A stretch of 64,000 nucleotides of DNA from Actinomycetes bacterium (GTDB taxonomy: Bacteria; Actinomycetota; Thermoleophilia; RBG-16-64-13). The stretch is from positions 217,139-281,138 of the forward strand of contig JAGXFW010000023.1 of assembly GCA_024637035.1 (NCBI GenBank). The letters are read 5' to 3'. The translations under genes and the position numbers were made by a program. Positions 192 to 57,800 of the stretch are shown piece by piece. How positions within the stretch are numbered: the first letter of the stretch is position 1; each line of letters opens with the position of its first letter. The notes beneath the pieces are model-generated. The model was not told where the DNA came from, made no database searches, and saw nothing but the letters and a program-made list of their open reading frames with translations.

Positions 192-812
192 ATGCACCGA
201 CTGCGAGCACTCGCGATGCAGCAGGGGTGGATCTACGAGACCATCGTTTCGACGTATTGTGGTGGAGAGCCCCACGCCGCCCCGATCGGAGTCCGCGCGG
301 AAGGCCTCGACACGCTGCGCATGGAGATCTTCGATTCCTCCCAGACTCTCACGGGGATACTCGACACGGGACTGTTCACGGTCGGCTTCCCCTCCGATGT
401 CACCATGTTCCACGCGGCCCTGTTCACCCCGGGACTCCTCGTCTTCGAGGAAGCGCGAAGCGTCTCGGCGCCCGTCGTTGTCGGCTGCGTTGCCACCGTG
501 GAACTCGCCCTTCGCGAGGCGATCCCGGCACCTCCCCGCGTCAGAATATCCGGGGAGGTCGTGCGTGCCGAAGTCCAGGTGGAGTCGCCTGCGAACCTCA
601 GGTTGTTCAATCGGGCTGAGGGCTTGCTGGTGGAAAGCCTCATCCTGGCCACTCGCCTGCAATACCTAGACGAAGAAACGGTTCGAAGATCGCTCGAAGA
701 GAACCGCCGCGTGATCCGCAAGGTCGCCCCAGGGTCGATCTGGGAGACGAAGATGGCTGACCTCATGGGCCACATCGGCGGCGCGGTCATCGCTCCTCCG
801 CCTCAACCTTGA
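192..812 (+). CDS. DUF447-family protein (H4MPT-cluster 'orf19'-type, FMN-binding split-barrel-like)
   Basis: 206-aa ORF; sequence pattern recalled from DUF447 proteins found in methanopterin biosynthesis neighbourhoods; context next to RFAP synthase. Confidence 0.5.
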   Translation: MHRLRALAMQQGWIYETIVSTYCGGEPHAAPIGVRAEGLDTLRMEIFDSSQTLTGILDTGLFTVGFPSDVTMFHAALFTPGLLVFEEARSVSAPVVVGCVATVELALREAIPAPPRVRISGEVVRAEVQVESPANLRLFNRAEGLLVESLILATRLQYLDEETVRRSLEENRRVIRKVAPGSIWETKMADLMGHIGGAVIAPPPQP

Positions 813-1782
813 TCTGCGCCCCCCGGTTCCGCCCTGCGGCCACGAAGACGACCCCTCCTCCGGAACTCCTCGCCACGAACTCGCGTACCTCCTCCTCCAC
901 ACGCTTCGAGCGTTCCGCGTCGACAAGCCCATAAACGGCCGGTCCCCACGAACTCTGCCCCGCTCCGAAAGCCCCGGCGCGCAGCATCACGTCGATGGCC
1001 CCGGCCGCGTCTCCGTCGCCGTAGATCCCACCCTGCACGCTCTCGAAGTAGAGCCCCGTCTTGCGGTCGATGGCCGTGAGGGCGCAGCCGAACTCGGCGA
1101 TGTCTTCCTCCACCAAGGCCGGCATGAGCTTGAGTTGGGTGAGCCTGCATATCTCTTCCGAGGCCCGGACAGGTGGTGAGAGCGCCCCGAAAGCCCTCTC
1201 TTCCCTCGAGCCGTTGAGGCCCAGACTCGAGCCTGGGATCGCCACGACGAAACGCCAGGCGGAGGGGAAGTCCCGCCGGAAGACCACGGTCGGCATCGCG
1301 CAGTCGTCCTCTCGATCCTTCTTGCGGCCAGCATCGATTATGAACCCACCGGTCTGGAAGGCTGCTACTCCGATCCCCGACCGTCTGCCCCTACCCACGG
1401 CGCGCGCCACCTCATCAGCGTCCAGGTGCAGGCCGAGCACCTTCGCTAGTCCTGTCCCCAACGCCAGCCCGAGTTGCGTCCCCGAGCCGAGCCCAACGTG
1501 CTCCGAGATCCTTTCGCGGACCTCGACAGAGACCCGAGGCTCTACGGAGAAGCGGTGGCAGAAACGACGCACGATACCCTCGATCTCACCGCGCTCGTCT
1601 CCTACAACCTGCAGGGAGTCATGCGTCTGGAGCACGAGCGAAGTGCAGGGCGCATCCAGCGCGACCCCTATGCTTCCATAGCAGCGCCCGACGTCTTCAC
1701 TCAGGTTCGTGAAGCCGACGTGCAACCTGCAGCCGGTCGCCACGGAGACCTTCACGGCTGCTCTGGGGGTCGTCGTGAGCAT
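787..1782 (-). CDS. mptG: beta-ribofuranosylaminobenzene 5'-phosphate (RFAP) synthase, GHMP-kinase fold (methanopterin biosynthesis)
   Basis: ORF 787..2178 trimmed to the ATG at 1780-1782 (MLTTTPRAAVKVSVATGCRLHVGF... typical RFAP-synthase N-terminus; ~332 aa). GHMP-like GLGSGTQLGLALG motif. The upstream 130 codons are an antisense extension over the flavoprotein gene. Confidence 0.7.
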   Translation of the reverse strand: MLTTTPRAAVKVSVATGCRLHVGFTNLSEDVGRCYGSIGVALDAPCTSLVLQTHDSLQVVGDERGEIEGIVRRFCHRFSVEPRVSVEVRERISEHVGLGSGTQLGLALGTGLAKVLGLHLDADEVARAVGRGRRSGIGVAAFQTGGFIIDAGRKKDREDDCAMPTVVFRRDFPSAWRFVVAIPGSSLGLNGSREERAFGALSPPVRASEEICRLTQLKLMPALVEEDIAEFGCALTAIDRKTGLYFESVQGGIYGDGDAAGAIDVMLRAGAFGAGQSSWGPAVYGLVDAERSKRVEEEVREFVARSSGGGVVFVAAGRNRGAQIKVEAEER

Positions 1783-2318
1783 CGCGCCAGCGCCCCTTCT
1801 ATCTCGTCTGGACCTGAGAGAACGATCACACCATCCATCGCAGCGAGCTTCGCGCAGTTCTCGATATCCACAGGCCGAATCGCCAACTCGAGCTTCTCCC
1901 CGCCGGGCAGGGTGGTGACCGTGGTCCCCGGGTGCTGATCGACAGGCAACAGGAAGACGGGCACATCCGTCTTGTTCGTTTGTGCCACCGAGTTCGTGAT
2001 GATGGTGTCGGCCACGCCATGCGCGATCTTCGCCGCCGAGTTCGCCGTCAGCGGGGCCACCAGAAGACAATCGAAACGGCCGGTCTGGAGCCTGCCTACT
2101 ATGAACGGCGTGTTGGCATCCTCTTCGATCAGCACGTCCTTGGCCATCGCCTCCAACTGCTCCCAGAGCTTGTACCAACGCACCACCTTGACCGCCGCCT
2201 GGGACAGCACCGCGGTGACCTGGACATCGCCTTTCTCCAGTACGGCCGACAAGGCGGCGAAAGTCTCCGGCATCAGGTCACCGGAACCTGTGATCCCCCA
2301 CACCAGTTTTAGAGTCAT
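1752..2318 (-). CDS. AfpA/DmrB-type flavoprotein (probable dihydromethanopterin reductase)
   Basis: 188 aa, PF02441-like N-terminus LKLVWGITGSGDLMPETF (W-ITG-G-L, archaeal AfpA/bacterial DmrB pattern rather than UbiX GxSGASG). Immediately upstream of and overlapping mptG. Confidence 0.5.
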   Translation of the reverse strand: MTLKLVWGITGSGDLMPETFAALSAVLEKGDVQVTAVLSQAAVKVVRWYKLWEQLEAMAKDVLIEEDANTPFIVGRLQTGRFDCLLVAPLTANSAAKIAHGVADTIITNSVAQTNKTDVPVFLLPVDQHPGTTVTTLPGGEKLELAIRPVDIENCAKLAAMDGVIVLSGPDEIEGALARCSRRPPEQP

Positions 2319-2323
2319 ACGGC

Positions 2324-2974
2324 CTACCTCCCTACAGGACGGTCACCCACGACAAGGCGCGTCACTTCGATCAGGCGGTCGACCGACCGGCGCACCGAAG
2401 CCATACCCTCTTCGTCGGCCTCCGCGCCCTCCGCTCCCAAGTCTCTCGACCACACGGCGCCACCGAGGTTCGCTCCGAACGACCCGCCGCCCACGGGGAT
2501 CATCTCGCTGATCACATAGAAGTCCATCATGGAGTGCAGCGTCGGTTCCTGACCGCCCGTTCGGTCTCCACCCACCGCGATGCCCATGCCGACTTTGTTC
2601 CTGAACACCTTCGGATCCTGCGCCACCAGTGCCCGACAGCGATCGAGAACCGCCTTGAGCTGCCCGCTGATCTGCCCCTGATAACAGGGGCTCCCGAGGA
2701 TCCAGGCATCGGCTCGTTGCATCAGTGGATAGAGATCGGCCATATCGTCCTTGTGGACACACCCTTGTCGTTTCCTAACGCAATAGTCGCAGTGGATGCA
2801 GAACTCGATGGTCTTCTTGCGAACGCTGTAGTAGTCCACCTCTACTCCGTGCTGCTCGTGCGCGTATCTCAGCGCCGCGTTGACGGCGTGGTGTGTCGAC
2901 TGCCTGCGCGGACTCCCCGAGATGCCCAGAAGCCGTATACCCGTTCCGCTCGTGGGGCTCACCATGTCACGCAT
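2324..2974 (-). CDS. iron-sulfur flavoprotein / NADPH-dependent FMN reductase family protein
   Basis: Start chosen at MRDMVSP (AGGTGG upstream). LLGISGSPRRQS flavodoxin-like NADPH-FMN reductase N-terminus plus compact Cys cluster CIHCDYC...C (Isf-type). Confidence 0.6.
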   Translation of the reverse strand: MRDMVSPTSGTGIRLLGISGSPRRQSTHHAVNAALRYAHEQHGVEVDYYSVRKKTIEFCIHCDYCVRKRQGCVHKDDMADLYPLMQRADAWILGSPCYQGQISGQLKAVLDRCRALVAQDPKVFRNKVGMGIAVGGDRTGGQEPTLHSMMDFYVISEMIPVGGGSFGANLGGAVWSRDLGAEGAEADEEGMASVRRSVDRLIEVTRLVVGDRPVGR

Positions 2975-3044: not shown

Positions 3045-3767
3045 CTATGACTCGTCTCCTCCGCTCTTGAGGCCGGCAACGTAGTCGTACACGAAGGCCG
3101 CCAACAGACCTCCTACGATCGGTCCGATGATGTAGATGGGGAACTTCTCCCAGCCACTCGTCGTGCCCCAGAACGTCTCGGTGAGCAGCGGACCGAAGGT
3201 ACGCGCGGGGTTCATCGAAGCACCGGCGATCGGGCCGGTCACGATGATGTCCGCAGTCACGACCAGTCCGATGGCCAGCCCTGCGAACCCGGCGGAGGCC
3301 CTCTTGTCGACCGCCGCTCCCCAGATCACCAGAACGAGGAAGAAGGTCGTCACGGCCTCTATCAGGATAGCCTGCCAGTAGTTGACGCCGTCACCGGGCA
3401 TCGTGTGACCAAGTCCGGCGTCAACGGCGCGCGTGCCGACTATCGCAACGATCACCAGCGAAGCCGCGACCGCACCGATCAGCTGAGCGACGATGTACGC
3501 CATGAGGTCCTTGGACGGAAAGCGGCCGGTGGCCCACAACGCGATGCTCACGGCTGGGTTGATGTGAGTTCCCGAGATATGCCCGAAAGCGTAGATCATT
3601 ATCATGACGGCGAAGCCGAATGAAAGGCCGATCAACAGCAGGCCCGCGGATTCGACGCCGCCGAAGAACACAACCGAAGTCACTACGGAACCCGTGCCCA
3701 AGAATACGAGCACGAAGGTACCGATCAGCTCCGCGATGGCGCGCTTCATCAGTGTTGGCTGCGGCAC
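3045..3767 (-). CDS. MIP-family channel (aquaporin/aquaglyceroporin)
   Basis: Two NPA boxes (HINPAVS and NPARTFGP), six hydrophobic helices, 240 aa. Confidence 0.85.
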   Translation of the reverse strand: MPQPTLMKRAIAELIGTFVLVFLGTGSVVTSVVFFGGVESAGLLLIGLSFGFAVMIMIYAFGHISGTHINPAVSIALWATGRFPSKDLMAYIVAQLIGAVAASLVIVAIVGTRAVDAGLGHTMPGDGVNYWQAILIEAVTTFFLVLVIWGAAVDKRASAGFAGLAIGLVVTADIIVTGPIAGASMNPARTFGPLLTETFWGTTSGWEKFPIYIIGPIVGGLLAAFVYDYVAGLKSGGDES

Positions 3768-3886
3768 AGTGTCACCTCCAGGGTTCTAGTCAGTGGCAGT
3801 GGGCGAGTGGAGAACGGGACGGCATCGCCCCGATCTCCACTCGTGTTCACCCGAACCTTAGGTCAGTCTAGGTAGACTTCCCCGGC

Positions 3887-5416
3887 TCAGACGGCGAGGT
3901 GCCACTGGCAGTACCCTTTGGCGCCTGTACCCAGGCCGGTCGCCATCGGGACGTTCCGCTTGATCAGCGAGCATGTGGCGCAATCCTTGCAGCCACGAAC
4001 CGGTGCTCCCGGAGTACCCGGATCGGCAGCCACGATGTTGGTCATCAGCGTGGCTGTGGTGCATTCGGGCGTCAGGAAGCACGGGAAGTCGGACAACGTC
4101 ATCAGGGCCGCGAAGCGCTGCGTGATGGCGCAGGCCGGATACGTGTAGCGCTGCGGGTTGCTGATGACCTCGTTGTTGTCGACGGTGCTGAGGTCGACCT
4201 CCACGCCCTTGATCTTGCCGCCGGAGCCTAGCGGGGTGATATCGAGGATGCTCTCGCCGCGCTTGAGGATATCCATGAAGTCGACGTTGTGTAGCTCGTC
4301 GGCCTCGCCCCGGTCGGGATGCATGGCGCAGTAGTTGTGGAACCGCTTGTTCAGCAGATCGATCACCATGGGCACGGTGAAGCTATCTTTCCACAGGATA
4401 TAGGCAGATGCGCAGGCCGTCGACCCCGTGGCCACCGAAAGAACGTCATACACGCTCTTGAACGCATCCTGCTTGAGAGCACGGTTCAAGGTGTTCTCCA
4501 ACACACCCGTCACCGACTCGTAGATGGCGAAAACCATATCGTCGGCGAACATATTGTACGCGGACTGAGCGATGTGGTGGGCGACGTCCCCCACGCAGTA
4601 CGCCGGCACGGCGGTGATGTTGGCCGGGTGCACGCCCGCCTTCATGGCAGCGACGATAGTCGGCCGCATCCTGTCTTTGTACTGCGCCATGTACTTACGG
4701 GTGTCGAACGACGTGTGCGGTCCGTGCCCACCCAGGTTGTGGGTGTCCATCAACTGAGCCTGGGCAGCGGAGGGTTCGCGGTAGATGAACTGCAGCATGT
4801 CGATCTCGGCCTGCTCGGCCTCGGCCAGCGTCTTGCCGGACTCGATGGCACCGCGGAGGGCACCTGCAAGGCCGTAGGACGTGTTCATGCCCCACGACTT
4901 ACACGCCAGAATCGTCTTCTTGTGGTCTGCCGGGATGTCCAAGCCGATGAGGATCTGGTTGACCAGGTTCGGCACAGAGCCTACGGACATGGCGAAGTCC
5001 ACCACGCAGGTCGGGCCGTACATGCCCCCGTAGCGTCGCACCGCTTCCCGCCCAACCAAAGCCTTGTTGGCTCCGATGGCGTCGATGAACTTCCACATCG
5101 AATCCTTGAAGGCCGAATCTTCCTCGTACAGAATCTCGAGGATGGGCGGAGTCTGGTAGTGCTCCACGAAGGGATCATCTTCGGGACGCACCGTCTCGCA
5201 CAGGCTCGTCATGATGTCGAAGTGGGCATTCACCGAGTCAACGTGGAGGGCGATGACCTCCTTGGACTGCCCCTCGGCCGCCGTCATCTTGTTCACGGCG
5301 TCCACGTAGGGCTTGGCGTCCGTAACCTTGAACGTCCCACCCCTGTTGGCCTTGTTCACACCGAACACGGCCTTCGTAGCTCCGACTGCTTCGGTGATCA
5401 TCTTCTCGTACAGCGA
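3887..5416 (-). CDS. conserved hypothetical protein, 509 aa, Cys-motif C-terminus (function unknown)
   Basis: Long ORF 3887..5620 trimmed to MSLYEKMITEAV at 5416, which has a GGGAGG Shine-Dalgarno 5 nt upstream. C-terminal motif GCKDCATCS...CQWH. No family confidently recognised. Confidence 0.5.
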   Translation of the reverse strand, partial: SLYEKMITEAVGATKAVFGVNKANRGGTFKVTDAKPYVDAVNKMTAAEGQSKEVIALHVDSVNAHFDIMTSLCETVRPEDDPFVEHYQTPPILEILYEEDSAFKDSMWKFIDAIGANKALVGREAVRRYGGMYGPTCVVDFAMSVGSVPNLVNQILIGLDIPADHKKTILACKSWGMNTSYGLAGALRGAIESGKTLAEAEQAEIDMLQFIYREPSAAQAQLMDTHNLGGHGPHTSFDTRKYMAQYKDRMRPTIVAAMKAGVHPANITAVPAYCVGDVAHHIAQSAYNMFADDMVFAIYESVTGVLENTLNRALKQDAFKSVYDVLSVATGSTACASAYILWKDSFTVPMVIDLLNKRFHNYCAMHPDRGEADELHNVDFMDILKRGESILDITPLGSGGKIKGVEVDLSTVDNNEVISNPQRYTYPACAITQRFAALMTLSDFPCFLTPECTTATLMTNIVAADPGTPGAPVRGCKDCATCSLIKRNVPMATGLGTGAKGYCQWHLAV

Positions 5417-5590
5417 CATTGTTCCCTCCCAGTCCTGTTCGACCCACATCTGTCTCTGGGAGAAGCGCGACGGCAGATCCATCTGCTCCCTCTCCCCCTC
5501 GAGTGGCCGGGTCGTGCTCTCGGATCCCCGCGCCCGTTCCCCGGGTTCAGGGATGAGAACGAAAAAACCGACCCACAAAGAGTCTCCTCT

Positions 5591-5656
5591 TGGCAGCTCG
5601 GCCGTGTTCAAGCGGAACACCTACAGCCTGGCAGTCCCTTCCGCAGGGTAGCCTGT
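5591..5656 (-). promoter_or_regulatory. copy A of a conserved ~68-nt element, ~175 nt upstream of the 509-aa gene
   Basis: Shares tggcagctcggc ... gcggaa ... tcccttccgcagggtagcc with copy B at 6223..6290 (~80% identity; perfectly conserved 19-mer and 12-mer). Confidence 0.45.
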
Positions 5657-5820
5657 ACTTATCCTACGATGCCACTCGTCTAGCGAAACTCTTTGAAACC
5701 GTTCGAGACTCAACAACAGTCTCTCTCGCACACCAACTCAGTCACATCTCTCGGCCGACACCACCTCCTCGGCCGCTCGGCCGCTAGCGCTTCCGCTAGC
5801 CGCATCGAGCCTTCGCAAGC

Positions 5821-6024
5821 CTACGTCAGCACCTCGGCGCATTCAGCGCACAGGATCCTCGGAAGCTTCTTCTTGGCCTTCGTGCTGGGGAATGGATAGC
5901 CGCCTTCCCACAACTCGACGTCTTCCCTGATCGCATGGTCCTTACAGAGACCCATCCCACAGACGATACAAACGCCTACGGCTACCGTCTCCACGCCCGA
6001 CTGAGCGCACACGTAACACTGCAT
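5821..6024 (-). CDS. DUF2180-like small zinc-ribbon protein (4 CxxC pairs)
   Basis: 67 aa, MQCYVCAQ...CIVCGMGLC...CAECA; GGGAGGAAGGAGG Shine-Dalgarno upstream. Confidence 0.55.
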   Translation of the reverse strand: MQCYVCAQSGVETVAVGVCIVCGMGLCKDHAIREDVELWEGGYPFPSTKAKKKLPRILCAECAEVLT

Positions 6025-6200
6025 ACCTACCTCCTTCCTCCCTGCGTTCGAAGTGCATTACACACGATTCCTACACCGCCGCTACTCCGGCTGCGCCTCC
6101 TGACGCGGGCATCAGGCACTCTTCAGGCGGCAGGCACGGTCGCGATCTCCTCACCTCCTCCCTTCTTCACTTCGCCACGGTTTGAACCCGGGAAAGCAAA

Positions 6201-6236
6201 CAGCCGAGCTGCCAGAAATACCTGGCAGCTCGGCTG
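6201..6236 (-). other. perfect 15-bp stem hairpin (CAGCCGAGCTGCCAG-AAATAC-CTGGCAGCTCGGCTG) overlapping the 5' part of repeat copy B
   Basis: Exact inverted repeat read directly from the sequence. Its right arm is the conserved 12-mer of the repeated element. Confidence 0.5.
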
Positions 6237-6290
6237 TGCGTTGGCGGAAAAACCAAACAGCCTTGCCGTCCCTTCCGCAGGGTAGCCCGT
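6223..6290 (-). promoter_or_regulatory. copy B of the conserved ~68-nt element, ~195 nt upstream of the DUF2180 gene
   Basis: See copy A. Same orientation and nearly the same spacing to the downstream start codon. Confidence 0.45.
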
Positions 6291-6365
6291 GACGGTCGTT
6301 CGCCAACCATATGCGAAGGGTGGCGCGGTTGTCAAGCGGTCGGGAGAGCCCGACTCCGCACCTCC

Positions 6366-19920: not shown

Positions 19921-22900
19921 TTATGGGTACGTCCTGGGGCTGGCCAAATGGGCGCAGTCGCCCCCGTAGCAGTTCCCGGCCGTGGGATTGAGCCCGCCGA
20001 GCCACCCACCGTAGAGGAAGGCTTTCGTCGTGATACCAGGGGTCTGGGCACCCGTGCCCGCCGGCCATGTCCAGCTGCCGCCGTGGATGTTGCCCGGACT
20101 GCCGTTCGCCACCGTGGCGCCGTCGGATTCCACCAAGCCGGCGTGGCAGCCCCGACAGGCCATGGTATTGCCGCCGGAAAACACGTGCTGTCCGCGGCTG
20201 TGGTCAACAAAGCGAGAGCCGGTACCGTTCGTTTCGTATACGCTCAGCTTGTGGCAGCGAAGACATAGATCGCGCTGCCCGCCGTAGTTCGGAGATGCGA
20301 TCGTGCCCACATTGGTACGAAGCATGTATCGGTTCGTGTTGCCGTGCCCGGACCAAGCCTCGTGGCAGTCGAAGCAGGAGATCACGTTGTGTGTGTTCGC
20401 CGCCTGATTCCACGGGACCACCATGGTGATGACGTTGCCGTTCGTGGCCGTGGCCGTGGTGTACGGGTTCGTCCCCACACCGCGGACGGCATGGTGGAAG
20501 TTGTTCGTGGTGGCGAAGGCGCTGAAGATGTTGGGCACATCCCGCGTGTTGCTGCTGAACGGCCGCGCTGCCGTGCCGCCGGGTGAGACGCGGGCGCCCG
20601 CGCTGCTGGCGCCATCCGAATCGTGACACTTGAAGCACAGGTTGTTCTGCACGTTGGTGACCCAGGCTTCCAGAGTGTTCGAGGCGGTGTTGCGGGTGAA
20701 GGAAGTGACGGCGGTCGCGATGGCGGCGCCGGTGTCGGGATCGCGGAAGTTGATGGCGTTGTTCTTATGGTTCGCCGAGATGATGTTGCCCGTGGCCGGG
20801 TCGCCCTCCATGTGGCACACGCCGCAGTCCTTGTCGGTGACCGCACCGCCCATGACGTGGCGACCGGTCAGCGAGAACTCGCCCGTCATCGCGCGCCGGG
20901 TGGGCGCCCCGTCGGCGTTGTCCTGCGCGACCGCGTGACAGCCCACGCAGCTGCCGCCTCGGTTCGGGCGGTGCACGTTGTACCCGGTGGCGGCGGTCGG
21001 TGCCGCGTAGCTGTTGCCGTGACAGTCGTAGCAGCTCACCGTGGGCGTGACCCGGTTGGTCTCGCCGTGAGCGGTGATCCCGGTGATGAGCGAGAGCTTA
21101 TTGGCGGCCGTACGCCGATCGAGGCCCTCAATCGAGGTGAGTTCGCCCGCGGGGATGGTATTCGCAAGAGCGTCCCCGCTACCCGTCACTCGCTGCCAGG
21201 GCAGGTGGCACTTGAAGCAGAAGTTCACGACCCCAGCCGTGGTCGTGGTGTCGATGTTCGACCACTGCTCGTCGGAGATGAGCTTGGTGTTGGCCTGCGT
21301 GCCGTTGTTGCCCTTCGACCCGTGGGGATTGTGGCAGTCGTAGCAGGGGAGCGGCGCGCCCACGGGCAGGTTGCCGCCGGCAGTGAAGATGCGGTGGCCG
21401 CCGGTGTAGTCGGCGCCGGTAAGGCTGTAGTCGTACGAGACGTACTGGAGGATGTTCTTCGTCGACGGGCTGCCGTCATGACAGGTGATGCACAGCAGGG
21501 CGTACGTGCCGTTCTGGCGGTCGGACTGGGCGGTTGCTACGTCTGGGGTCGGCCGGTACGTAGCCACGAGCGCGTCGTAGGTGGCCGTGTTGCGGTGAGG
21601 GGCGTGGCAGTTGCGACAGTCACCAGAGGCGCGGCCCGAGGCCGGCCAGATGACGTTCACCGAAGTGGTCGGGTTGTGCGGGTTGAACGTGGTGTTGTTG
21701 TACGCGGTACTGCCGGGGTAGGTGCCCAGGGTGGGGTAGCCGTTGGCTGCCCGCGTGGGCCGCGCCGCGTTGATGCCGCCCGATGGATACGGGTAGGTCG
21801 GCACGGCCCAGCTGAACGCGTCGTTGTGACACGCCTGACACCACGTGTAGTTGTTGCCGGTCACGGCCGTGGCATTGATGGTGGGCTTGTAGAGTTTCGG
21901 CTTGCCCCCCGCGCCTGAGGCCGGGTAGTGGGCGCCGTGGCACGAGGAGCACCTGCTGGTCAGACCCGGCCCTGGGATCACAACTGAATCGTTCACCTGG
22001 TGGCCGCTCCCGGCGAGCAGGAAGACAGCCTTCATGTTGGTGGCCGCGCCGGTGCCGTCGTGGCACATGTAGCAGACGTCCGCTTCCTGCGACTGCGGGA
22101 AGATCTTGCCCCCGTACGTGGCGGCCGCGGCCGCTCCATGTGGTGAATGGCAGTTCCGGCAGAGGTTGGTCGCGTTCGAATAACCGCCGTGCGGCGTGAT
22201 GCCCGTGAGGGCGGTGGTGAAGCTGCGTGAGAAGGGCGCCCCGAGCGGGTTGCCCGCGAGATCGGCCGCCACGCCCGAGGTCCAGATGGTGTAGACGGTG
22301 TTCACGTCCATCATCTGATCGGGGTAGATGTATACCGTGGTGCGGTCGGCGGCCAGCACAACGCTCCGGATCGGCACCAGCGACGCACCGATGCGCAGCT
22401 GCACATAGTCATCGTCCGTCAGAGTGTTCGGGTCCATCGGTTCGCTGAAGACGACAGTGGCAAAGCTGTTCACCGGCACGCCGGTAGCTCCGCTGGCCGG
22501 TGTGGCGCCGGTGACCATGGGCGGCGTGACATCGGCCGCGGCTGTGGTCTGGAAATTGGCCACGCTTGTCGCCGCCAACGCGAGCCCCGCCGCGTTCTGC
22601 GCACCGGTGGTGACCCGGGTGAAGTAGCGGCGTCCGGTCAGGAGGGCGGCGGTCGGCAAGAAGGCGACGGTGCGCGTTGGGTCGTCGTAGAGGAGAGTGC
22701 CGGCGATCTGCGTGTCGACGGCTAGGTCGAATACCCCGTTGTTGTTGGTATCGAGCCAGAGCTGCACGTTGGCGCCGATGATGGTGGCCGGGTTCATGTT
22801 GTCCGAGAAGATGATATTGGGTGCCACGTTCGTCGGAATGCCCGTGGCCCCGTCGACCGGATTCCGCCCGGTGATGGTGGGTGGCGTGGTGTCGAGGGTG

Positions 22901-25011
22901 ATAGCGTCGGTGACCGAGCCGGTGGTGTTGCCGTGAGAATCACGGTATTGGGCGTAGACGGTCTTGGCGCCGTCGCCCGCGGTCAACGTCCAGGCTGCGC
23001 TCGCGCTATAGGCCTGCCAGCCGGCCCAAACGGCGCCATCGTTGCTGAAGCGCATCTCCATCGGGAGCGACCCATCGGTGACCGTGCTGGTGAGGGTGAC
23101 GCTGGTCGTCGTCGTGTACGCCGCGTTTGCGTTGACGACGAAGCCGGTCACGGTCGGTGGCCGGGTGTCCACGGTGATGGTGGGGTTACCCAGGGACAGC
23201 CCGGTGTTGGCGGCGCCGTCGGTGGCCCGCGCCACGATGGTGCGGGGCGGAGCGTTGTCTTCGCTGGGTAGCGTCCAGGTGTAGCTCCAGGTGACGGTGC
23301 CCGTGCCGGCGCCGGAGGTGCTCGTCGCAAGCGCCCAGGAGGTCCCGCCGTTCACCGACACCTCGACTTGGCTCACCACGACGTTGTCGGTGGCGCCCCC
23401 GGTGATGTTGTAGGTGACACCAGTCAGCACCGCGCCGTTCGCGGGCGCGGCCACCGTGGCGGCGGGCGGAACCGCGTCGGGGCCGGAAGACGTCGTGAAG
23501 CGCCACGTGTAGGCCGCGGCCAGAGGCAGCCCGGCGGCGTTCTGCACCGAGGTGGTCAGTCGGGCGATGTAGGGCGTGCTGGCGAGCAGGTCGATCGTGG
23601 GATCGAGCGTCGCCGTCTTGCTGCCCGCGTTGTAGGTGACCGTGCCGGCCACCTGTACGTCACCGGCGTCGATGACGCTGTTGCCGTTCACGTCGCGCCA
23701 GAGCTGGTAGTTCGTGGTGTTGATCGTGGCGACGTTCATGTCGTCGCTGAAGGTGGCCGTGATGTTCGCCGCCGGATCGACGCCTGTGGCGCCGTTCACC
23801 GGGATCGTAGCGGTGACGGTGGGCGGAGTCGCGTCGAGGATGATGGTGTCGTTCGTGGCGCTGACGTTCAGAGCTACGTCGCGGAACTCGGCGTACACGG
23901 TCTTCACGCCGTCGCCGGCGGTGAGTGTCCAGGCCTTGGTGGCCGCGTAGTTCTCCCACGCTGACCACACCGTGCCGTCGTTGCTGAAGCGCATCTGGAT
24001 GACCTGCCCCTGGGCGGTGCTGCCATCTGTGACGCTGTTGTTCAGGGTGACGGCGGTGGCGGTCGTGTACGCGGCGCCGCCCGCCACCGCGAAACTCGCC
24101 ACGTTGGGGGCCACCCTGTCCACCCACACCTGCCGACTGGCGGTAGGCACTTCGGTGTTGGGCACCGCGTCGCGGGCCCGCGACCAGATGGTGCGCGATA
24201 CGTAGTCGAGTACCGGAACGCTCCACGTCTGGCTCCAGGTGACCGTGGGCGTGCCGGAGCCGGAGGTGACGGTCGCGGCACTCCAGCTGGCTTGGTTGTC
24301 GGTGGAGACGTCCACTTGGCTGATGTTGCTGCCACCCGTGCTCACATCGGTGGCGCCACCGGTGATGTTGTAGGTGGCCGAGGAGATCACGAGGCCGTTG
24401 GCGGCGGGAGTCGAGATGGAAGAAGTGGGCGGCGTGACATCGGACGAGCCGGTGACGGTCACGACGAACGAGCCGCCGTTGCGCGCGCTCCAGTCGCCGT
24501 TCTTGCCCGACTTGCCATTGCCGGCTACTGCGGCGATCCACAGCCGATAGGTACCCGGCGTGGCCGGCGCCGTCCACGTGAAGTTGACGATGGCGCTGGC
24601 CAACAAGGCTGATTGCCGCAATTCGTTCGTGGTCAGTATCGTGATGTTCGGAGTGACGGAAGTAAGGGTTCCGACGCGGGTGCCGCCCGTCGAGGCGGAA
24701 TTGGTGAAGGCGAGATCGATGCCCCAATCGGCCAGGTCCGCGGGCCCCCCGGTGATAGTCACCTGGTAGGCGCCGAGTTGGTTCGTGTTGAGCGCGGTCG
24801 GCCCGGTGATGGAGAGCCCGGCCGTGCCGGATTCGTGGCAACCGCCGGCCCCGCACCCGAGGGCCGTGTCGTAGGCCGTGTAGCCCGTGGAGGATGCCCT
24901 GGCCGGCGCGTCGCCAAGGACCACGATCCATGCGGCCGCCGCGATCACCAGTAGCACGACCGCACCGGCGAGCGCCCAGCCGCCGCGACACGGGAATAAT
25001 CGCACCATCAC
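19921..25011 (-). CDS. giant multiheme c-type cytochrome (1696 aa) with N-terminal S-layer-type Ig-like repeats; 15 CxxCH + 1 CX4CH
   Basis: Signal/anchor MMVRLF...AVVLLVIAAAAWIVV. Repeated ~90-aa modules with TPPTVTATIPVNGATGV...FSDDM (SbsA/Big_5-type signature). C-terminal third carries CRNCH, CYMCH, CSSCH, CQACH, CRNCH, CITCH, CYDCH, CFKCH, CYDCH, CVGCH, CGVCH, CFKCH, CFDCH, CLRCH, CRGCH; N-terminal CGAGGCH. Confidence 0.85.
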   Translation of the reverse strand: MMVRLFPCRGGWALAGAVVLLVIAAAAWIVVLGDAPARASSTGYTAYDTALGCGAGGCHESGTAGLSITGPTALNTNQLGAYQVTITGGPADLADWGIDLAFTNSASTGGTRVGTLTSVTPNITILTTNELRQSALLASAIVNFTWTAPATPGTYRLWIAAVAGNGKSGKNGDWSARNGGSFVVTVTGSSDVTPPTSSISTPAANGLVISSATYNITGGATDVSTGGSNISQVDVSTDNQASWSAATVTSGSGTPTVTWSQTWSVPVLDYVSRTIWSRARDAVPNTEVPTASRQVWVDRVAPNVASFAVAGGAAYTTATAVTLNNSVTDGSTAQGQVIQMRFSNDGTVWSAWENYAATKAWTLTAGDGVKTVYAEFRDVALNVSATNDTIILDATPPTVTATIPVNGATGVDPAANITATFSDDMNVATINTTNYQLWRDVNGNSVIDAGDVQVAGTVTYNAGSKTATLDPTIDLLASTPYIARLTTSVQNAAGLPLAAAYTWRFTTSSGPDAVPPAATVAAPANGAVLTGVTYNITGGATDNVVVSQVEVSVNGGTSWALATSTSGAGTGTVTWSYTWTLPSEDNAPPRTIVARATDGAANTGLSLGNPTITVDTRPPTVTGFVVNANAAYTTTTSVTLTSTVTDGSLPMEMRFSNDGAVWAGWQAYSASAAWTLTAGDGAKTVYAQYRDSHGNTTGSVTDAITLDTTPPTITGRNPVDGATGIPTNVAPNIIFSDNMNPATIIGANVQLWLDTNNNGVFDLAVDTQIAGTLLYDDPTRTVAFLPTAALLTGRRYFTRVTTGAQNAAGLALAATSVANFQTTAAADVTPPMVTGATPASGATGVPVNSFATVVFSEPMDPNTLTDDDYVQLRIGASLVPIRSVVLAADRTTVYIYPDQMMDVNTVYTIWTSGVAADLAGNPLGAPFSRSFTTALTGITPHGGYSNATNLCRNCHSPHGAAAAATYGGKIFPQSQEADVCYMCHDGTGAATNMKAVFLLAGSGHQVNDSVVIPGPGLTSRCSSCHGAHYPASGAGGKPKLYKPTINATAVTGNNYTWCQACHNDAFSWAVPTYPYPSGGINAARPTRAANGYPTLGTYPGSTAYNNTTFNPHNPTTSVNVIWPASGRASGDCRNCHAPHRNTATYDALVATYRPTPDVATAQSDRQNGTYALLCITCHDGSPSTKNILQYVSYDYSLTGADYTGGHRIFTAGGNLPVGAPLPCYDCHNPHGSKGNNGTQANTKLISDEQWSNIDTTTTAGVVNFCFKCHLPWQRVTGSGDALANTIPAGELTSIEGLDRRTAANKLSLITGITAHGETNRVTPTVSCYDCHGNSYAAPTAATGYNVHRPNRGGSCVGCHAVAQDNADGAPTRRAMTGEFSLTGRHVMGGAVTDKDCGVCHMEGDPATGNIISANHKNNAINFRDPDTGAAIATAVTSFTRNTASNTLEAWVTNVQNNLCFKCHDSDGASSAGARVSPGGTAARPFSSNTRDVPNIFSAFATTNNFHHAVRGVGTNPYTTATATNGNVITMVVPWNQAANTHNVISCFDCHEAWSGHGNTNRYMLRTNVGTIASPNYGGQRDLCLRCHKLSVYETNGTGSRFVDHSRGQHVFSGGNTMACRGCHAGLVESDGATVANGSPGNIHGGSWTWPAGTGAQTPGITTKAFLYGGWLGGLNPTAGNCYGGDCAHLASPRTYP

Positions 25012-45628: not shown

Positions 45629-48600
45629 CTACCAGGTCCGCCGTTGGCCGCCGCCGGTGACGTTGTTATCGTGCATCCCATCGTTGCCGCCGCTCGCTCG
45701 AGACCATCCATGCTCGCTATCGCAGTTCGTGCTGGTCGACGGGTTGCTGATGTTGTTCGCGGCACCGATACTGGCGTTGTGGCTTGTCCACTTGCCATTC
45801 GCTGAGTGGCACGAGCCGCAGAACTGGCCGAAGAAGTCCGCCGTGAGCGCGCCCGCGGCGTTGACCTCCCAAGAGGTCAGGTGGATAGCGGCTCCGGACC
45901 CGGCGGCTCCGGTGCCGAGCAGATACGCGTTCGAGTCGTTCATCACGACGCCATCGACCACGATGTACTCACGCAGGAAGTACACGTTCTGCGATCCGTG
46001 CGGGTCGTGACAGGCGGTGCACTGCATGGCGGCGTAGGCGTAGGCGGGGTTGGAGTCAGAGTACGTAGTGCTCTGGAAGGGGTAGCGTGGACGCCAGTCG
46101 CGGTCGGAGCTGATGCTGCTGCCGTCGCCACTCCCGTGACGCACCGGGGTGGCGGTGCCATCGCCCAACCACTTGGCTGCAATATCCATCGGGACGGCAC
46201 TGCCCATGTTGACCGTCGGAGAAGTGCCGGCGGGCACGGTGTTGTCATGGCAGGCCAGGCAGAATTTGATGGAGTCCGCCGTAGCTTCCGCCGCGCCGCT
46301 GGCCGGGTTGTACGGTGCGGCCGTCCCATGGATGCCGGCAGGGTGATCCGGGTTCAGGTCGGCGTTCGCCCCGGACGGGACGTTCGCGTAGTTGCGAGCC
46401 GCGCCACCCACCACGAGCGTGTTCAGCGTGGAGTAGGCCCTCAGCGCCGTCGGGTACCCCGCCGTCCCTGGCTGCACGTCGGCGTCGAGAACCTTCCAGT
46501 AGTTGCTGGATGGGGTGGCTCCGGCGTTCAGGTGCGGGTTGTGGCAGTTCAAACACTCGATGGCGCCGGTTGTCGTGTTGGCAGTCGCGCCTCCGGTCCC
46601 GCGCTTGGTGACCGAGTACGTCACCCCCTGCTCGCTGTCGAGCACAGGGTGGTGACTCAACGGGACCGCCGCGCCAGCGGAAGCCTTGTTGTAGGCGAGC
46701 GTGCCTGCCGGAGTGGCTGTCGCCGTGAACTTCCGCTGAATGCTGTAGCTCGTCGTGCCCGGCCCGACGAGCCTCCCCGGGCCCGCTGCGGCATGACACT
46801 GGTAGCAGAGGTCCTCCTCGAAGGCCAACGTGTAGTTGGCGTACTGCGTGCCGTGCGGGTTGTGGCACTGCTTGCAGACGCCCACGTAGATGTTCTGAGC
46901 GACGGCAGGCACCGGGGGCGAGTAGGTCAGGCTGCGCGTCTTCGTGCTGGCCCCGTGGCCGGAACTCGTGTACGACGCACCGGGCAGGTTCGGAGCGATG
47001 GGCCCGCCGATGGGTAGGCCGTGGCAGCTATTGCACACTGCGTTGTACTGGGTGTTGTAGTTAGCGGCCGAGGTGCCGTTGAAGGTGCGCACGAATCCCT
47101 TGATGTTCTCCGAGATCAGCTTGTCGTTGGTTGTGCCGTGCTCCGAGTGGCAGCCCTTGCAGGCGATGCTCTCCACCGAGGGCACCCGCAGGTCGTTCAT
47201 CAGGATGCCGGCGCCGCTCAGCTTGTTGTGGCCGCTGCCGGACGCCGGGTAGTTCGTCTTGTGGTCGGTGCCCGTCGAGGCGTTCCACGATGCGCTGCTG
47301 ATGTAGCCGGCCGACGTGGCCGCGGTGGTGTTGTGGCAGGTCCAGCAGAAGTCGTTGCCGGTGACGTTGACGTAGGCTCCCGAGTACGACGGGTCGAGCT
47401 TCTTCACCGCCAGGAAGCGCTGCCCGGTGCCGGTCCGCGCGTGCGCGTTGTGGCAGTTGGAGCACCGCATGACGGCGCCCGTGTTCGTTGTCGCGCCGCT
47501 CACCCACGTGTGGGTGAGAGAGGCCGGCACCGGATGGTACGACCCGGACGAACCCACGATCTTCGTGGACGTGCCGATGACGGCCTCACCGAAGTCCCAG
47601 GAGAAGGGCGAGACGTTGTCGGTGGTCTTCACGTTGTACGACGACCCCGTGCCGTCGTGGCAGGCGTAGCACACCTGCTTCTCGGTAGCCGCGGGGAAGA
47701 GCTTGCCGCCGAGGTTAGAGGCTTGGACGGCGGCACCGTGCACCGAGTGGCAGTTGCGGCACAGGTTCTTGGCGGTCGTGTAGCCCCCGTGCGCCGTGAT
47801 GCCGGTGGCGGCCGTGGTGAAGGTCGTGGTGGACGCCGAGCCGAGCGGATTGCCGGCCAAGTCGGTCACGGCCCCCGAGATCCACACGGTGTACACGGTG
47901 CTGATGTCCATCATGGCGTCGGGATAGACATAGACCCGGGTGCGATCCGAACTCAGCACCACGGTCTCCGCCGAGATGGGCGTCGCCCCGATGCGTATCT
48001 GCACCTTGTCGTTCGTGAGCGTGCTCGGATCCATCTCCTCGCCGAAGACGATCGTGACGAACCCGTTGACAGGGACGCCGGTGGCGAGGTTCGCGGGCGT
48101 GACCGTCGAGACCGTGGGCGCTGTGGCGTCCAGGGAGGCGGCGGCGAACTCGGTGAAGTGACTCACCGTTCCGGTGACCGTGTCGGCCGCCTGGTTCACG
48201 GTCGAGCCGCCCTCCACCTGCACCCACGCCGTTCCGTTGAAGTAGAGGAGCTTGATGGTCGATTCGTCCACAGCCCCGGGCACGTACTTCAGGGTGATCT
48301 GCACCGGGCTTGTGAACAGCTGAGCGGCCGGAGTGGAATTGTAACTCGGGGTCACGAAGACCTTCGGCGGCGAACTCGGGGTGGTGGTGAGTTCGGTGAT
48401 GCCGATGGCCGTGGCCCCGGGGAGCGCACCGGCCGGAACGACGAGGCGCGCTTTGCCGTTGGTGGCGAGGAGCGTTCCGCCGCCCGCGCCCACACTCCCG
48501 TTCACGAGCACCATCGAAGTGTTCGCAACCGCGGACTTCACCGACTCGTTGCTGCTGGCGTCGACCGCCGTCACCTTGTAGTAGTAGACGACTCCCTCGG

Positions 48601-54405: not shown

Positions 54406-54889
54406 TATTGTCGACCCCGTGTCACGCCGGCGGTGGACCACGGTTCGGAATCGGTAGAGCCGGAATCGGTCCGTTTTTGTCAGAGTAGAATTGCGTGGTT
54501 GCAGACGAATAATCCGCCGGCTTTCCAAACTAGCTGCAAATGGCGCATTCCTAGACTCAATGCGGTTGATTCGCCGCCTGAAGAAGTCCTTGACAGACCC
54601 CTTGGATGCCTATAGGCTATCGCCTGAGAGTATAAGGAGTTGGAGGCGTAGATCCCCGTTTCCGTACCTGGGCACTTGGGGCGGGGGGAGCCAGTAGTGC
54701 AACCGGCCATGGGGATGGCCGGTTTCTTTCGTTTTTCCGGTTCATCTCAAGAACATGAGACAGTCACTTCAGACCGGGGCCTCGGCCCCGGTCGACTCGT
54801 CTCTAGAGCACTACTACCTGCCGTAGTAGTGCCGATGTTCACGAACTCCTTTCCTCCAGAGACTAATGTGGAAAGGAGGTGAATCGCAA

Positions 54890-57800
54890 ATGAAAATGAA
54901 GAAACTCGTAATCTGTATCACTCTGGTCGCGGCAGTCTTGTTGCTCGCGGCCGCTGCACCCGCGCTGGCTCTGACCAGCACGGACTGCAAGAACTGCCAC
55001 TTGGCACCGCTCGGTGAGGCCACGGGTGCACTGGTGAACTTCGGCGTGAACCCGGTGACGGTACCCGATAAGTGCGTCGTCTGTCACGACGGTGTGAGTA
55101 TGCCGGGGCACAACTTCGCACCCAGCACTCTCACCGACGTGGACAAGATCCACCGTTCGCACACCGGCACACTAAGCTTCGGCCTGGACATGACGGTGCC
55201 GCCGTTCACTACGTGCGGCAACAACGGTTCCGGAGGCTGTCACTCCGGGGTCGTCGACTGCGAATGGTGCCACGGCACCGACATCACCCATCAACTAGCG
55301 GCCCACGGCAACAGCACGCCGGGGACGGTCGTTGCAGGTGTTCCGACGCGCGTGGTCAGCAACATGAACACCGCACCGGTGACCAAGTCGCTCACGTGTC
55401 TTGCGGCGCAATGTCACGCATTGCAGGCGCCGGCGGCAGGACTCTCCCAACAGAGCGTTCTGTTCGCGCCGTCGTGCATCCAATCCGGTTGCCACGGTGA
55501 TGAGTCGCACACCGTCGTCCACGAGCCCGACGCGGCTCTGACGGCGACGTATGCCACCTGCGGAGCCGCCGGTTGTCACGACCTCAACCTGGTCACGGAA
55601 CACGTGACCAATCAGGCGCTCGCTTGCGGCACGTGTCACGACTCGACCGAATCGGCTGTTGTCGGGGCTATCGCCGCCGGCTCAGCTCCTGGTGGAGCCA
55701 AGCAAGGCTGTTACGTCTGTCACGGCGCGGGTGCGGGCAACCATACGCCGCAGCACGCCTTGACGAACCCGGTGCAGCCACCGACGGATTGCCAGTCGGC
55801 CTCGTGCCATGTGGACAACTTGGTCACGGAGCACATCGATCGTCGCGCACTCACATGCGATACCTGCCACGCCGGCTCTACCGCCGTGCAGGGTGTGATC
55901 ACGACGTTCAAGGCCATCGCGCAGAACCCGACGTGTGAGGACTGTCACGGCACGATCACCGGACATGCTGTGCAGCATGACCTGACGAACCCTGTGGCTC
56001 CTCCGGCCGAGTGCCAGTACTGTCACCCCACCAACCTGTTGTCCGTGCACATCAACCCGGTCTTCCCGACCGACGTGAACGGCAGCACCTGGGGGGCGTA
56101 CAACTGCAACACATGTCACTCGCCGAGCAGCAGAGCATATACGTTCGTGACGGCCTTCTCTGCCAGCGCGGCCAACCCCAACTGCGCGACGTGTCACGCG
56201 GTCGCGAGCGTCCACGTCGATCGTCACCTGACGACCTCGACGGCATGCTTCGACAGCGGGTGTCACGTGAGCACCAACCTGGCCACGCTCCACGCGGGGT
56301 ACGGCCGGGGCTGTAACACCTGTCATACGGCTTCTCCGCGCGCCGGAGTCCGCGAGGCCATCCTCGCGAACAACACCTCGTGCGAGGCCTGCCACATGTC
56401 AGGGCACTTCGATCAGCACGCGTTGCCCGCCGACAAGACCATCGGCTCCGGGTACTACAAGTACTCGAACCAATCGTCCGGCACCACCGACTGCGCCATC
56501 TGTCACACGAACAACGTGATCTTGGAGCACACCGGTGACGCCACGACGGGTCGCCCGGCCTGGCTCGCGGCGAACGGCTCACCGCTCAACTGCGACACGT
56601 GCCACAAGAGCACGCGCGCGGCAGTGGTGGCCGCTATCGCGGCAGCCGCAACCGGCCAGCTGACGAACTGCGACCAATGTCACACGGTCCACGGCACGCC
56701 AACGTTGGAGCACCAGTCGCCGACCTCGGCGCCTGACCAGAGCTGCGGCCAGAGTGGGTGCCACAACGCGAACCTGCTGGTGGAGCACGAGATCCGTTGG
56801 GCAGTGGAACCATCGGACACGCAGAACAACACTCTCATGATTGGGGGTGTCTGCAACCGGTGCCACCTCGGCAACACGGGCGCCCTGTCGAAGACCTTGG
56901 TGTTGACGGCCATCGACAACGGCGACCGAACGTGCCAGGCGTGCCACGGCGCGAACGCGGGCGCGGGTCACACCGCGACTCACGATCCCGACGCGGCGCT
57001 CTCGGCTACGTACGCCTCATGTGCCGATCCCGGTTGTCACGTTCTGAACATCGCCACGCAGCACGTCGGCGATACGTTCAAGAGCGGTGTCGTCGGTTCG
57101 TGCAACACGTGTCACAGCAGCACGGCCCCCGCGTACGCCACGGCCGCCATCGCGGCGTGGAAGACCACGGGAGCCAAGCAGGGCTGCTTCGTGTGTCACG
57201 GCGGCAACGCCGGAGCACACCTGACGCAGCACGCGCTCACCAACCCGGTGCAGCCGCCTGTCGCGTGCCAGGGTTCCACGTGTCACGTGGACAACTTGGT
57301 GACGGAGCACGTCGATCGTCGTGCGCTCAACTGCGCCACGTGCCACAGCGGCTCTGCCGCAGTGCAGCAGGTCATCGCGACTTACCGCACGGGTGGCTCG
57401 AAGGCCACCATGAACCCGATGTGCACCGAGTGCCACGGGCCGACGGCCGGTCAGCACGTGCAACAGCACGAGCTCGCCGCGTCCGACTGCTCTCTGTGCC
57501 ACTCGAACAACCTGGTGACCGAGCACATCGTCAACAACCCATTGGGTTGTGACACGTGCCACGGCGCTGGTGCGTCGGCCACGGTGAAGTCGGTGATCGC
57601 CACGTACGGCGGCGCGAATCCGGCACTGCCGCTGTGCACGAGCTGTCACGCCGCGAACACGTATCACGCGGGCGCGACCGCCAAACACACGGCCAACGAA
57701 GAAACCGACTGCCAGAGCTGCCACCTGATGATGCTCCCGACGGAACACGCTCGGAGCACCAGCATCAGCAACTCGCGCAGCTGCGGTGCGTGTCACCCGC

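Follow-up and report, generated by a model that had tools for sequence, protein, structure and literature searches.

A conserved leader RNA and a DUF2193-DUF2180-channel module in bacterial methanopterin islands: a candidate ON riboswitch and a predicted iron-sulfur enzyme

Introduction

What do a large protein with a cysteine-rich tail and a small metal-binding protein do among methanopterin-related genes in an actinobacterial genome, and why do their genes carry the same element upstream? The two genes lie on the minus strand of a 64-kb stretch of contig JAGXFW010000023.1 (positions 217,139 to 281,138; Actinomycetes bacterium, Thermoleophilia), hereafter the window, with which related stretches, cited by L-numbers, were compared. 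A preliminary description, made from the letters alone, suggested that the pair may be a co-regulated enzyme and accessory zinc-ribbon protein of one-carbon (C1) or cofactor metabolism; both open reading frames (ORFs) are present, the observation is confirmed overall, and the interpretation is supported in part. The large protein is a member of the DUF2193 family and the small one of DUF2180, and each is preceded by its own copy of a structured leader RNA. The explanation that we prefer, and consider somewhat probable, is that the locus is the head of an operon controlled by this RNA as a putative ON riboswitch, in which a predicted [4Fe-4S] enzyme of the DUF2193 family, a DUF2180 partner and the solute of a MIP-family channel would be linked to C1 metabolism on tetrahydromethanopterin (H4MPT).

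The leader RNA

The element common to both upstream regions is real. In the 64 kb there are exactly two occurrences of the 20-mer GGCTACCCTGCGGAAGGGAC, at 5634-5653 and 6268-6287 on the minus strand, a number that none of 100 shuffles reached, and the likeness between the two copies, one 5' of DUF2180 and one 5' of DUF2193, spans about 66 nucleotides (nt), each copy being followed by a terminator-like hairpin. The two genes are co-regulated insofar as a separate copy of one conserved leader RNA precedes each of them.

The core of this RNA is found again in about 20 genome loci, belonging to three phyla, where it stands on the sense strand 5' of DUF2180/DUF2193, and a pattern scan of metagenomes gave 78 further loci with the leader pattern; about 25 of the 78 metagenome matches are chance occurrences inside GC-rich coding DNA, ruled out by model score and context. 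A covariance model, R1, was built from 21 sequences, and a score of 48 bits was taken as the lower limit for a copy; pattern matches that arise by chance do not exceed 34 bits. With this model 101 copies (82 of them distinct) are found in 84 sources, namely the window, which holds exactly two, and 83 loci. All 101 are in bacterial loci, those with a taxonomic label being Thermoleophilia/Actinomycetota, Anaerolineae (Chloroflexota) and Syntrophaceae/Desulfobacteraceae (Desulfobacterota).

The RNA is 66-68 nt long and consists of a three-way junction with a loop-loop pseudoknot. P1 is GGC/GCC, with one GAC/GUC variant, and P2 is invariantly CCC/GGG. P3 has about 10 bp, interrupted by a 2x2 internal loop whose positions form Watson-Crick pairs in some lineages, and a pseudoknot of 5-6 bp joins the P2 and P3 loops (GCGGAN with NUCCGC). 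The junction nucleotides are near-invariant across the three phyla, and the isolated copy B segment refolds into P1-P2-P3. When the 82 distinct sequences are aligned, 88% of cells are paired, and 13 of the 22 base pairs show changes at both positions. No shuffle out of 500 reaches either value; the pairing counts are inflated, since P1-P3 were aligned by fit to the model. Slid controls have covariation scores of at most 0.073, where the RNA itself scores 0.172. Compensatory changes affect 9 of the 10 pairs of P3, and 3 of the 6 pseudoknot pairs covary, though the pseudoknot was absent from the model used to build the alignment.

The expression platform suggests how such an RNA might act. In 72 of the 88 distinct platforms, a hairpin farther downstream takes up at least 8 nt from the 3' part of the aptamer (U run in 62), and what follows this strong hairpin is a U run or, in high-GC genomes, a weaker U-rich tail. 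The 5' arm of the intrinsic terminator is made of the 3' strands of P3 and P1; in copy B of the window it is the P3 3' strand plus P1, and the stem is perfect over 17 bp. Because these strands serve both structures, aptamer and terminator are mutually exclusive, which predicts an ON switch, and we infer that the leader RNA controls transcription in this way.

Rfam 15, at gathering scores, has no family for the leader in the window (a c-di-GMP-II element elsewhere is the only match), and at E up to 10 it gives only spurious hairpin matches between 5400 and 6400. A literature search turned up no paper describing the RNA. The kind of regulator is known, and the leader forms a new class of it; both protein families are already known as domains of unknown function (DUFs). 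Three other identities were tried and rejected: an ANTAR-type target, because the architecture does not match the two hexaloops of ANTAR targets; a dispersed repeat or mobile element, because the window holds only two copies, both in leaders; and a leader peptide, because there is no conserved small ORF.

Some leaders depart from the single-unit form. Complete units stand in tandem, two or three together, each with its own terminator and 110-160 nt apart, in L062 (11486-11777, minus strand), L117, L056, L058, L075, L100 and L110. In two Desulfobacterota genome loci, L015 (4324-4400) and L017 (5709-5790), a second GCCGAGCUGCC-like segment lies 45-70 nt past the aptamer; it may be what is left of a second unit, or may provide an additional alternative pairing. 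Weak R1 matches of 33-34 bits 5' of DUF2180 or DUF2193, at 270-339 of L002, 4651-4729 of L021 and 3-76 of L033, are probably divergent or insertion-bearing copies.

The regulon

By manual count, the metagenome scan yielded roughly 70 genuine copies, and about 53 of these stand in front of DUF2180 or DUF2193. Other copies precede FwdD-FwdB-FwdA, MptG-LarB-LarC, or a 600-residue protein of no known family followed by LarC2-Mtd-ATPgrasp-FwdB, and these positions, in front of DUF2180/DUF2193 and of the fwdDBA, mtd and mptG operons, are spread across Actinomycetota, Chloroflexota and Desulfobacterota. Judged by the genes that stand behind the leader RNA, therefore, the regulon comprises the H4MPT/methanofuran module of formaldehyde oxidation and the genes for its cofactors. 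In the loci compared, the RNA is accompanied by no gene for a candidate regulator.

The regulon has two further recurrent components. The protein of about 600 residues, which has no Pfam or NCBIfam family and no BLASTP similarity to DUF2193, is found in L061 (2049-3878, plus strand), L102, L053, L018, L026 and L050; in the loci that reach far enough (L061, L018, L026 and L050) it is followed by a LarC2-like gene and usually then by Mtd. Genes for the nickel-pincer cofactor also stand in methanopterin islands behind the leader RNA, as LarB-like, LarC, split LarC1/LarC2 and TrmO_N-LarC1 fusion forms, in L069 (in the operon after the motif at 4722-4787) and in L061 (381-1649 and 3976-4497). The proteins scanned include no member of the LarA family.

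The DUF2193 protein

The large protein, which had first been left without a family, matches the DUF2193 profile (PF09959) at 746.5 bits against a cut-off of 25 (E 1.5e-224), residues 2-489 aligning with profile positions 3-489 of 498, and an archaeal member of this family has been characterised as a [4Fe-4S] protein (PMC12375889). The ORF is genuine, as first described, with a corrected length: the start is the ATG at 5417-5419, preceded by GGGAGGG at 5424-5430, and the protein is therefore 510 rather than 509 residues long, matching its homologs. The protein is unusually conserved: it is 98% identical to its closest relatives, 73-93% identical to homologs from other bacterial phyla and 51-61% identical to methanogen proteins. 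An alignment of 60 sequences has more than 100 positions that are invariant across bacteria and archaea, many of them in polar or charged motifs; these motifs are EDDPFxEHYQTP, RRYGGxYGxTCVVDF, KSWGMNTSYG, RGxAxELHNxD, NPQxYTYxAC and DxPCxLTxExxTATxMTN, and the invariant cysteines are 137, 274, 429, 446, 476, 479 and 503 (alignment numbering without Met1).

The C-terminus reads ...RGCKDCATCS...GYCQWHLAV, as had been noted. It does not match the published methanogen tail, CX2CX6DX2(H/C)X2C, and is a variant form. The CX2C pair (C476 and C479) and the last cysteine (C503, in YCxW) are invariant across the alignment; in bacterial tails the motif aspartate is replaced (by lysine in the window protein) and 12 residues are inserted, and the window protein has an additional cysteine, giving CKDCATC and the pattern CX2CX2C...C. 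Three tail cysteines are thus invariant and the fourth is lineage-specific, and because three are fixed and one varies, the tail would suit a site-differentiated cluster.

An AlphaFold2 (AF2) model of the protein is all-alpha, with a mean predicted local distance difference test score (pLDDT) of 87 and a predicted template-modelling score of 0.90; the C-terminal tail is modelled poorly (pLDDT below 50 at 482-491). A profile search of the sequences in the PDB gave no match at E up to 10, and Foldseek of the model against the PDB gave no fold relative, the best TM-score being 0.19 or less; membrane-transporter matches at such scores are meaningless. Homology to a housekeeping enzyme, an outcome that would have spoken against the proposal of an undescribed enzyme, was found neither by this profile search nor by Foldseek.

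The DUF2180 protein

The small protein is a full-length match to DUF2180 (PF09947; 119 bits against a cut-off of 22.2, E 9e-35). The family assignment of the preliminary description was right; the four CxxC motifs that it counted are three CxxC and one CxxH, the metal-ligand pairs being C3/C6, C19/C22, C27/H30 and C59/C62. Of these ligands C3, C19, C22, C27, H30, C59 and C62 are conserved among 38 homologs, and identity to methanogen homologs is 61-64%. The AF2 model (pLDDT 87) has a small zinc-ribbon-like fold with a weak resemblance to the zinc-ribbon ribosomal protein eS26, a likeness that says nothing about function. NCBIfam has no model for DUF2180 or DUF2193, and a literature search turned up no mention of DUF2180. 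A different small cysteine-rich protein, of 71 residues and with a weak Prok-RING_1 match, lies between DUF2193 and the Isf-like gene in an Anaerolineae-like locus (L080), in the position that DUF2180 has elsewhere, and may be a functional analogue.

Gene neighbourhoods in bacteria and archaea

The arrangement DUF2193-(DUF2180)-MIP is found in methanogens, Actinomycetota, Chloroflexota, Desulfobacterota and a metagenome-assembled genome (MAG) of the Spirochaetaceae, and is an ancient conserved module of methanogens and bacteria. In archaea the order is DUF2193-DUF2180-MIP in Methanothrix, a Methanosarcinales MAG and Methanobacterium, and DUF2193-MIP without DUF2180 in Methanobrevibacter and Methanoregulaceae. 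The channel gene is present in all five archaeal contexts with called genes; some Methanomethylovorans loci show none within the stretch covered. The pairing of DUF2193 with DUF2180 thus recurs in both domains, in the three archaeal cases just named and in 25 of 41 bacterial loci. DUF2180 is not an obligatory partner: the loci of Anaerolineae, Chloroflexia, Spirochaetaceae, Methanobrevibacter and Methanoregulaceae lack it.

In every bacterial locus examined the module heads, or sits within, an H4MPT/methanofuran island whose genes encode an Isf-like reductase, AfpA/DmrB, an MptG-like protein, Mtd, an ATP-grasp protein and FwdDBA. Among the 41 bacterial loci of at least 8 kb, in which counts are limited by locus length, Mtd and AfpA are present in 34 each, the ATP-grasp protein in 33, MIP in 31, the Isf-like reductase in 29, the MptG-like protein in 26, FwdD in 20, FwdB in 18 and DUF447 in 17. 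Co-occurrence with H4MPT genes, on which the first proposal depended, is therefore seen in the bacterial loci, and the link to methanopterin and C1 genes is strong, both in these counts and in the leader RNA common to fwdDBA, mtd and mptG. Loci of the Desulfobacterota type are single long operons, DUF2193-MIP-(DUF2180)-AfpA-MptG-Mtd-ATPgrasp-FwdD-FwdB-FwdA, and Fae and Ftr are found within such operons, Fae in one only (L100).

Several loci vary this arrangement. In the Spirochaetaceae MAG (L016, 2437-9797), DUF2193-MIP heads an operon in which all the other genes belong to pterin/H4MPT biosynthesis (an HPPK+FolE2 fusion, AfpA, a DUF6513 and pterin-binding protein, DUF447 and MptG), with no copy of the leader RNA. 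In two Chloroflexia MAGs, L022 (9387-10478) and L039, a DUF1464 protein lies between Mtd and the ATP-grasp gene, in an operon DUF2193-MIP-Mtd-...-FwdDBA that also has no leader RNA.

Possible roles of the module

If the locus is the head of a riboswitch-controlled C1 operon, as we prefer to read it, a ligand would stabilise the aptamer and so turn transcription on. DUF2193 would then be the catalytic [4Fe-4S] subunit, with DUF2180 as its small zinc-ribbon partner, and the MIP channel would let the substrate, a small uncharged solute, pass the membrane. The reaction would serve H4MPT-linked C1 metabolism, most likely by handling a formaldehyde-level compound or by keeping the pterin cofactor functional, and the ligand of the riboswitch would be the MIP solute or a direct metabolite of the pathway. 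The leading guess is formaldehyde-level chemistry, given that the pathway of the regulon oxidises formaldehyde and that the protein regulators of such pathways sense formaldehyde. Arsenite, glycerol, H2S, CO2, NH3 and H2O2 were also considered as solutes of the channel, and the data neither favour nor rule out any of them.

It is conceivable, if doubtful, that the leader RNA is the first riboswitch class dedicated to methanopterin-linked C1 metabolism, sensing formaldehyde (as a hydrate or adduct) or a metabolite of the methanopterin pathway and switching on the whole island, and that DUF2193-DUF2180-MIP is a hitherto unrecognised Fe-S enzyme with a channel for a small neutral C1 compound, common to methanogens and anaerobic bacteria. 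If this is true, it would be a riboswitch for methanopterin-dependent C1 metabolism, possibly with an aldehyde-level response, and none has been described as far as our searches tell. DUF2193 has so far been discussed only as an Fe-S protein of unassigned role, though it is conserved across methanogens. Operon structure and a common RNA switch now tie DUF2193, DUF2180 and the archaeal AqpM-type channels to formaldehyde and methanopterin genes, which is a testable context and the first functional one for either DUF outside iron-sulfur biochemistry. An orphan riboswitch with a clear regulon is, moreover, a practical route to the missing metabolite, because in-line probing can find the ligand.

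Several points weigh against the preferred reading. On the side of the RNA, formaldehyde, as substrate or as ligand, is a guess from the content of a regulon in which Fae is so rare. P2, being invariant, is uninformative on covariation, the fitted alignment inflates the pairing counts of the other helices, and the start codon lies far from the terminator (145-175 nt in the window, more elsewhere). R1 finds no copy of the RNA in 15 archaeal loci, nor in L016, L020, L022 and L039, though the same genes are present there. On the side of the protein, an enzyme is argued for from conservation alone, neither the PDB profile search nor Foldseek gave a relative of known function, and the bacterial tail, CX2CX2C...C with its 12-residue insert, is unlike the archaeal one. 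The sole experimental paper favours a role in Fe-S carriage, sensing or regulation, and the Methanococcus maripaludis homolog is reported there as non-essential (PMC12375889), which argues against an essential step of cofactor biosynthesis.

That paper also supplies most of the case for a first alternative, which we regard as unlikely: DUF2193 would be no enzyme, and would instead carry Fe-S clusters or sulfide, or act as an Fe-S or redox-sensing regulator, possibly gating or servicing the tetrameric MIP channel, and it would owe its place in the islands to the large amounts of Fe-S clusters and metal that Fwd and related enzymes require. The M. voltae protein (MvoDUF2193, Mvol_0354) holds one [4Fe-4S] cluster per subunit, passes from an apo tetramer to a holo monomer and is 13-fold more abundant on pyrite, and a MIP or porin gene adjoins DUF2193 in 91% of the methanogens that have it (PMC12375889). 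An ApbE-like protein of sulfide assimilation has the tail motif too (PMC9431491), and an Fe-S trafficking or regulatory role has been proposed by the authors (PMC12375889; PMC9431491). The dispensability of the homolog and the low-confidence modelling of the tail agree with such a role. However, it is rare for a carrier or sensor to need such conservation: over about 500 residues the proteins of Actinomycetota and methanogens are 53-57% identical, and the core has more than 100 invariant positions throughout, most of them polar. The bacterial neighbourhoods, moreover, hold H4MPT and methanofuran genes in place of any for iron or sulfur assimilation, and the RNA switch of the operon is shared with mtd, fwd and mptG.

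The neighbourhoods themselves suggest a second alternative, also judged improbable, in which DUF2193 and DUF2180, with the Isf-like and AfpA flavoproteins as an electron chain, would carry out a step, missing so far or auxiliary, in the biosynthesis, salvage or redox repair of methanopterin; what the leader RNA senses would then be a precursor of the cofactor or an oxidised pterin, and DUF2193 would not be an enzyme that acts on a C1 substrate. The closest bacterial neighbours are indeed cofactor genes (AfpA/DmrB, MptG-like and DUF447), the L016 operon contains only pterin/H4MPT biosynthesis genes besides DUF2193-MIP, and AfpA/DmrB is accepted as a dihydromethanopterin reductase (PMC6193120). 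On the other hand, the homolog is dispensable in M. maripaludis, where H4MPT is not (PMC12375889), the conserved pairing with MIP in both domains is left unexplained, and the archaeal module stands apart from H4MPT biosynthesis genes.

It is unlikely that the leader element serves as the target of an antiterminator protein that binds RNA, or has some other role as a structured leader, since the small aptamer without an identified ligand, the long leaders past the terminator and the lineages that have the operon without the RNA, all of which agree with that idea, are set against a near-invariant junction, a covarying pseudoknot and an aptamer/terminator overlap of the kind typical of riboswitches, the lack of any accompanying regulator gene and of the ANTAR two-hexaloop architecture, and a distribution in the window that is not that of a dispersed repeat.

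Layout of the window and other features

The features of the locus are collected in Table 1. The MIP, Isf-like, AfpA and MptG-like genes follow DUF2193 downstream on the same strand, and these genes, together with DUF447, are where the preliminary description had placed them.

Table 1. Coordinates of genes and RNA elements at the methanopterin end of the window
Feature	Coordinates	Strand	Remarks
DUF447	192..812	+	PF04289/PF20766; divergent orientation, recurrent island member
Beta-ribofuranosylaminobenzene-5'-phosphate synthase family, MptG-like	787..1782	-	TIGR00144 180.9 bits vs cut-off 113.5
Archaeoflavoprotein AfpA (DmrB-type dihydromethanopterin reductase family)	1752..2318	-	TIGR02699 203.9 bits vs cut-off 192
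Isf-like flavin mononucleotide (FMN) reductase	2324..2965	-	PF03358 E 2.8e-33; start uncertain, ORF reaches 3079
MIP/aquaporin-family channel	3045..3767	-	PF00230 E 1.4e-53; TIGR00861 above cut-off
Inverted repeat I4, DUF2193-MIP spacer	3804..3843	.	18-nt arms, 89% complementary; no U tract after
DUF2193 gene	3887..5419	-	510 aa, PF09959, all-alpha, Cys-rich C-terminal tail (CKDCATC...C)
Terminator-like hairpin and U6 tract, copy A	5562..5603	-	5' arm overlaps aptamer P3/P1
Leader RNA copy A, aptamer-like domain, 5' of DUF2193	5590..5655	-	R1 73.2 bits, E 3.5e-17
DUF2180 gene	5821..6024	-	67 aa, PF09947, two Cys/His metal sites, zinc-ribbon-like
Terminator-like hairpin, copy B	6200..6237	-	17 bp; inverted repeat I5, 100% complementary; z-score -5.2
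Leader RNA copy B, aptamer-like domain (P1, P2, P3, L2-L3 pseudoknot), 5' of DUF2180	6222..6289	-	R1 76.0 bits, E 6e-18
Promoter-like site TTGACA-18-TATGGT, immediately 5' of copy B	6306..6335	-	10/12 consensus matches, consensus scan alone

The MIP gene begins 120 nt downstream of DUF2193, and the inverted repeat within this spacer may be an mRNA processing or stability hairpin. The Isf-like reductase carries a CxxCxxCx5C motif, FCIHCDYCVRKRQGC, read from the ORF translation, and the MptG-like protein scores under the cut-off of the equivalog NF040726. The closest genomes are Thermoleophilia/Actinomycetota MAGs, the DUF2193 protein being 98% identical in L001 and L023. Past DUF447, L001 continues with the methylene-H4MPT dehydrogenase Mtd (Mpt_N) and then an ATP-grasp gene, so that the window cuts through a larger methanopterin island.

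Far from this locus, a cyclic di-GMP (c-di-GMP-II) riboswitch (RF01786, 61.3 bits) lies at 54633-54717 on the plus strand, about 150 nt 5' of an ORF (54866-58375, plus strand) for a secreted protein of 1169 residues with 30 CxxCH haem-binding motifs; two further giant multihaem ORFs are at 19921-25011 and 45629-50692, both on the minus strand. The arrangement suggests an extracellular cytochrome under second-messenger RNA control in a Thermoleophilia-like genome.

Comparison with known systems

The nearest characterised protein is MvoDUF2193, which is of the same family over its full length and has the all-alpha fold, the cysteine-rich C-terminal tail and the MIP neighbour in common with the window protein. 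The latter differs in being bacterial (Thermoleophilia-like) and in its variant tail with the 12-residue insert, and only it is accompanied by an H4MPT/methanofuran island and a riboswitch-like leader, neither of which has been described for the archaeal protein. The archaeal relatives compared, from Methanobrevibacter, Methanobacterium, Methanothrix and others, have 53-57% identity to the window protein. In the lar operon of Lactobacillus plantarum (LarA-E), likewise, a MIP channel, the aquaglyceroporin LarD, stands beside a metallo-cofactor enzyme system, and homologs of LarB and LarC are present in the methanopterin islands studied. However, LarA is missing among the proteins scanned, DUF2193 is unrelated to the Lar proteins and the window channel matches LarD only weakly (E 1.4e-10, far under the cut-off); the link is circumstantial.

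Inducible control of formaldehyde-oxidising modules is known from the protein formaldehyde sensors FrmR, HxlR and EfgA/TtmR. Here the regulator is an RNA, and the likeness is one of functional analogy only.

Among RNAs, the tetrahydrofolate riboswitches THF-I and THF-II are OFF switches of folate transport and biosynthesis genes that bind reduced folates. They resemble the leader RNA in placing the genes of a pterin C1 carrier under RNA control; they differ in that the platform of the leader predicts an ON switch, in an unrelated architecture, and in a regulon that here also includes the catabolic enzymes Mtd, Fwd, Ftr and Fae. The ZTP riboswitch (pfl motif) is a small pseudoknotted aptamer that competes with a terminator and acts as an ON switch of folate-linked one-carbon and purine genes. 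The Rfam scan gave no sequence or structural match between the two RNAs, and the regulon of the leader is that of methanopterin and methanofuran, not folate, but the outline is alike: a pseudoknotted aptamer set against a terminator, predicted to turn on a regulon of cofactor-dependent C1 metabolism.

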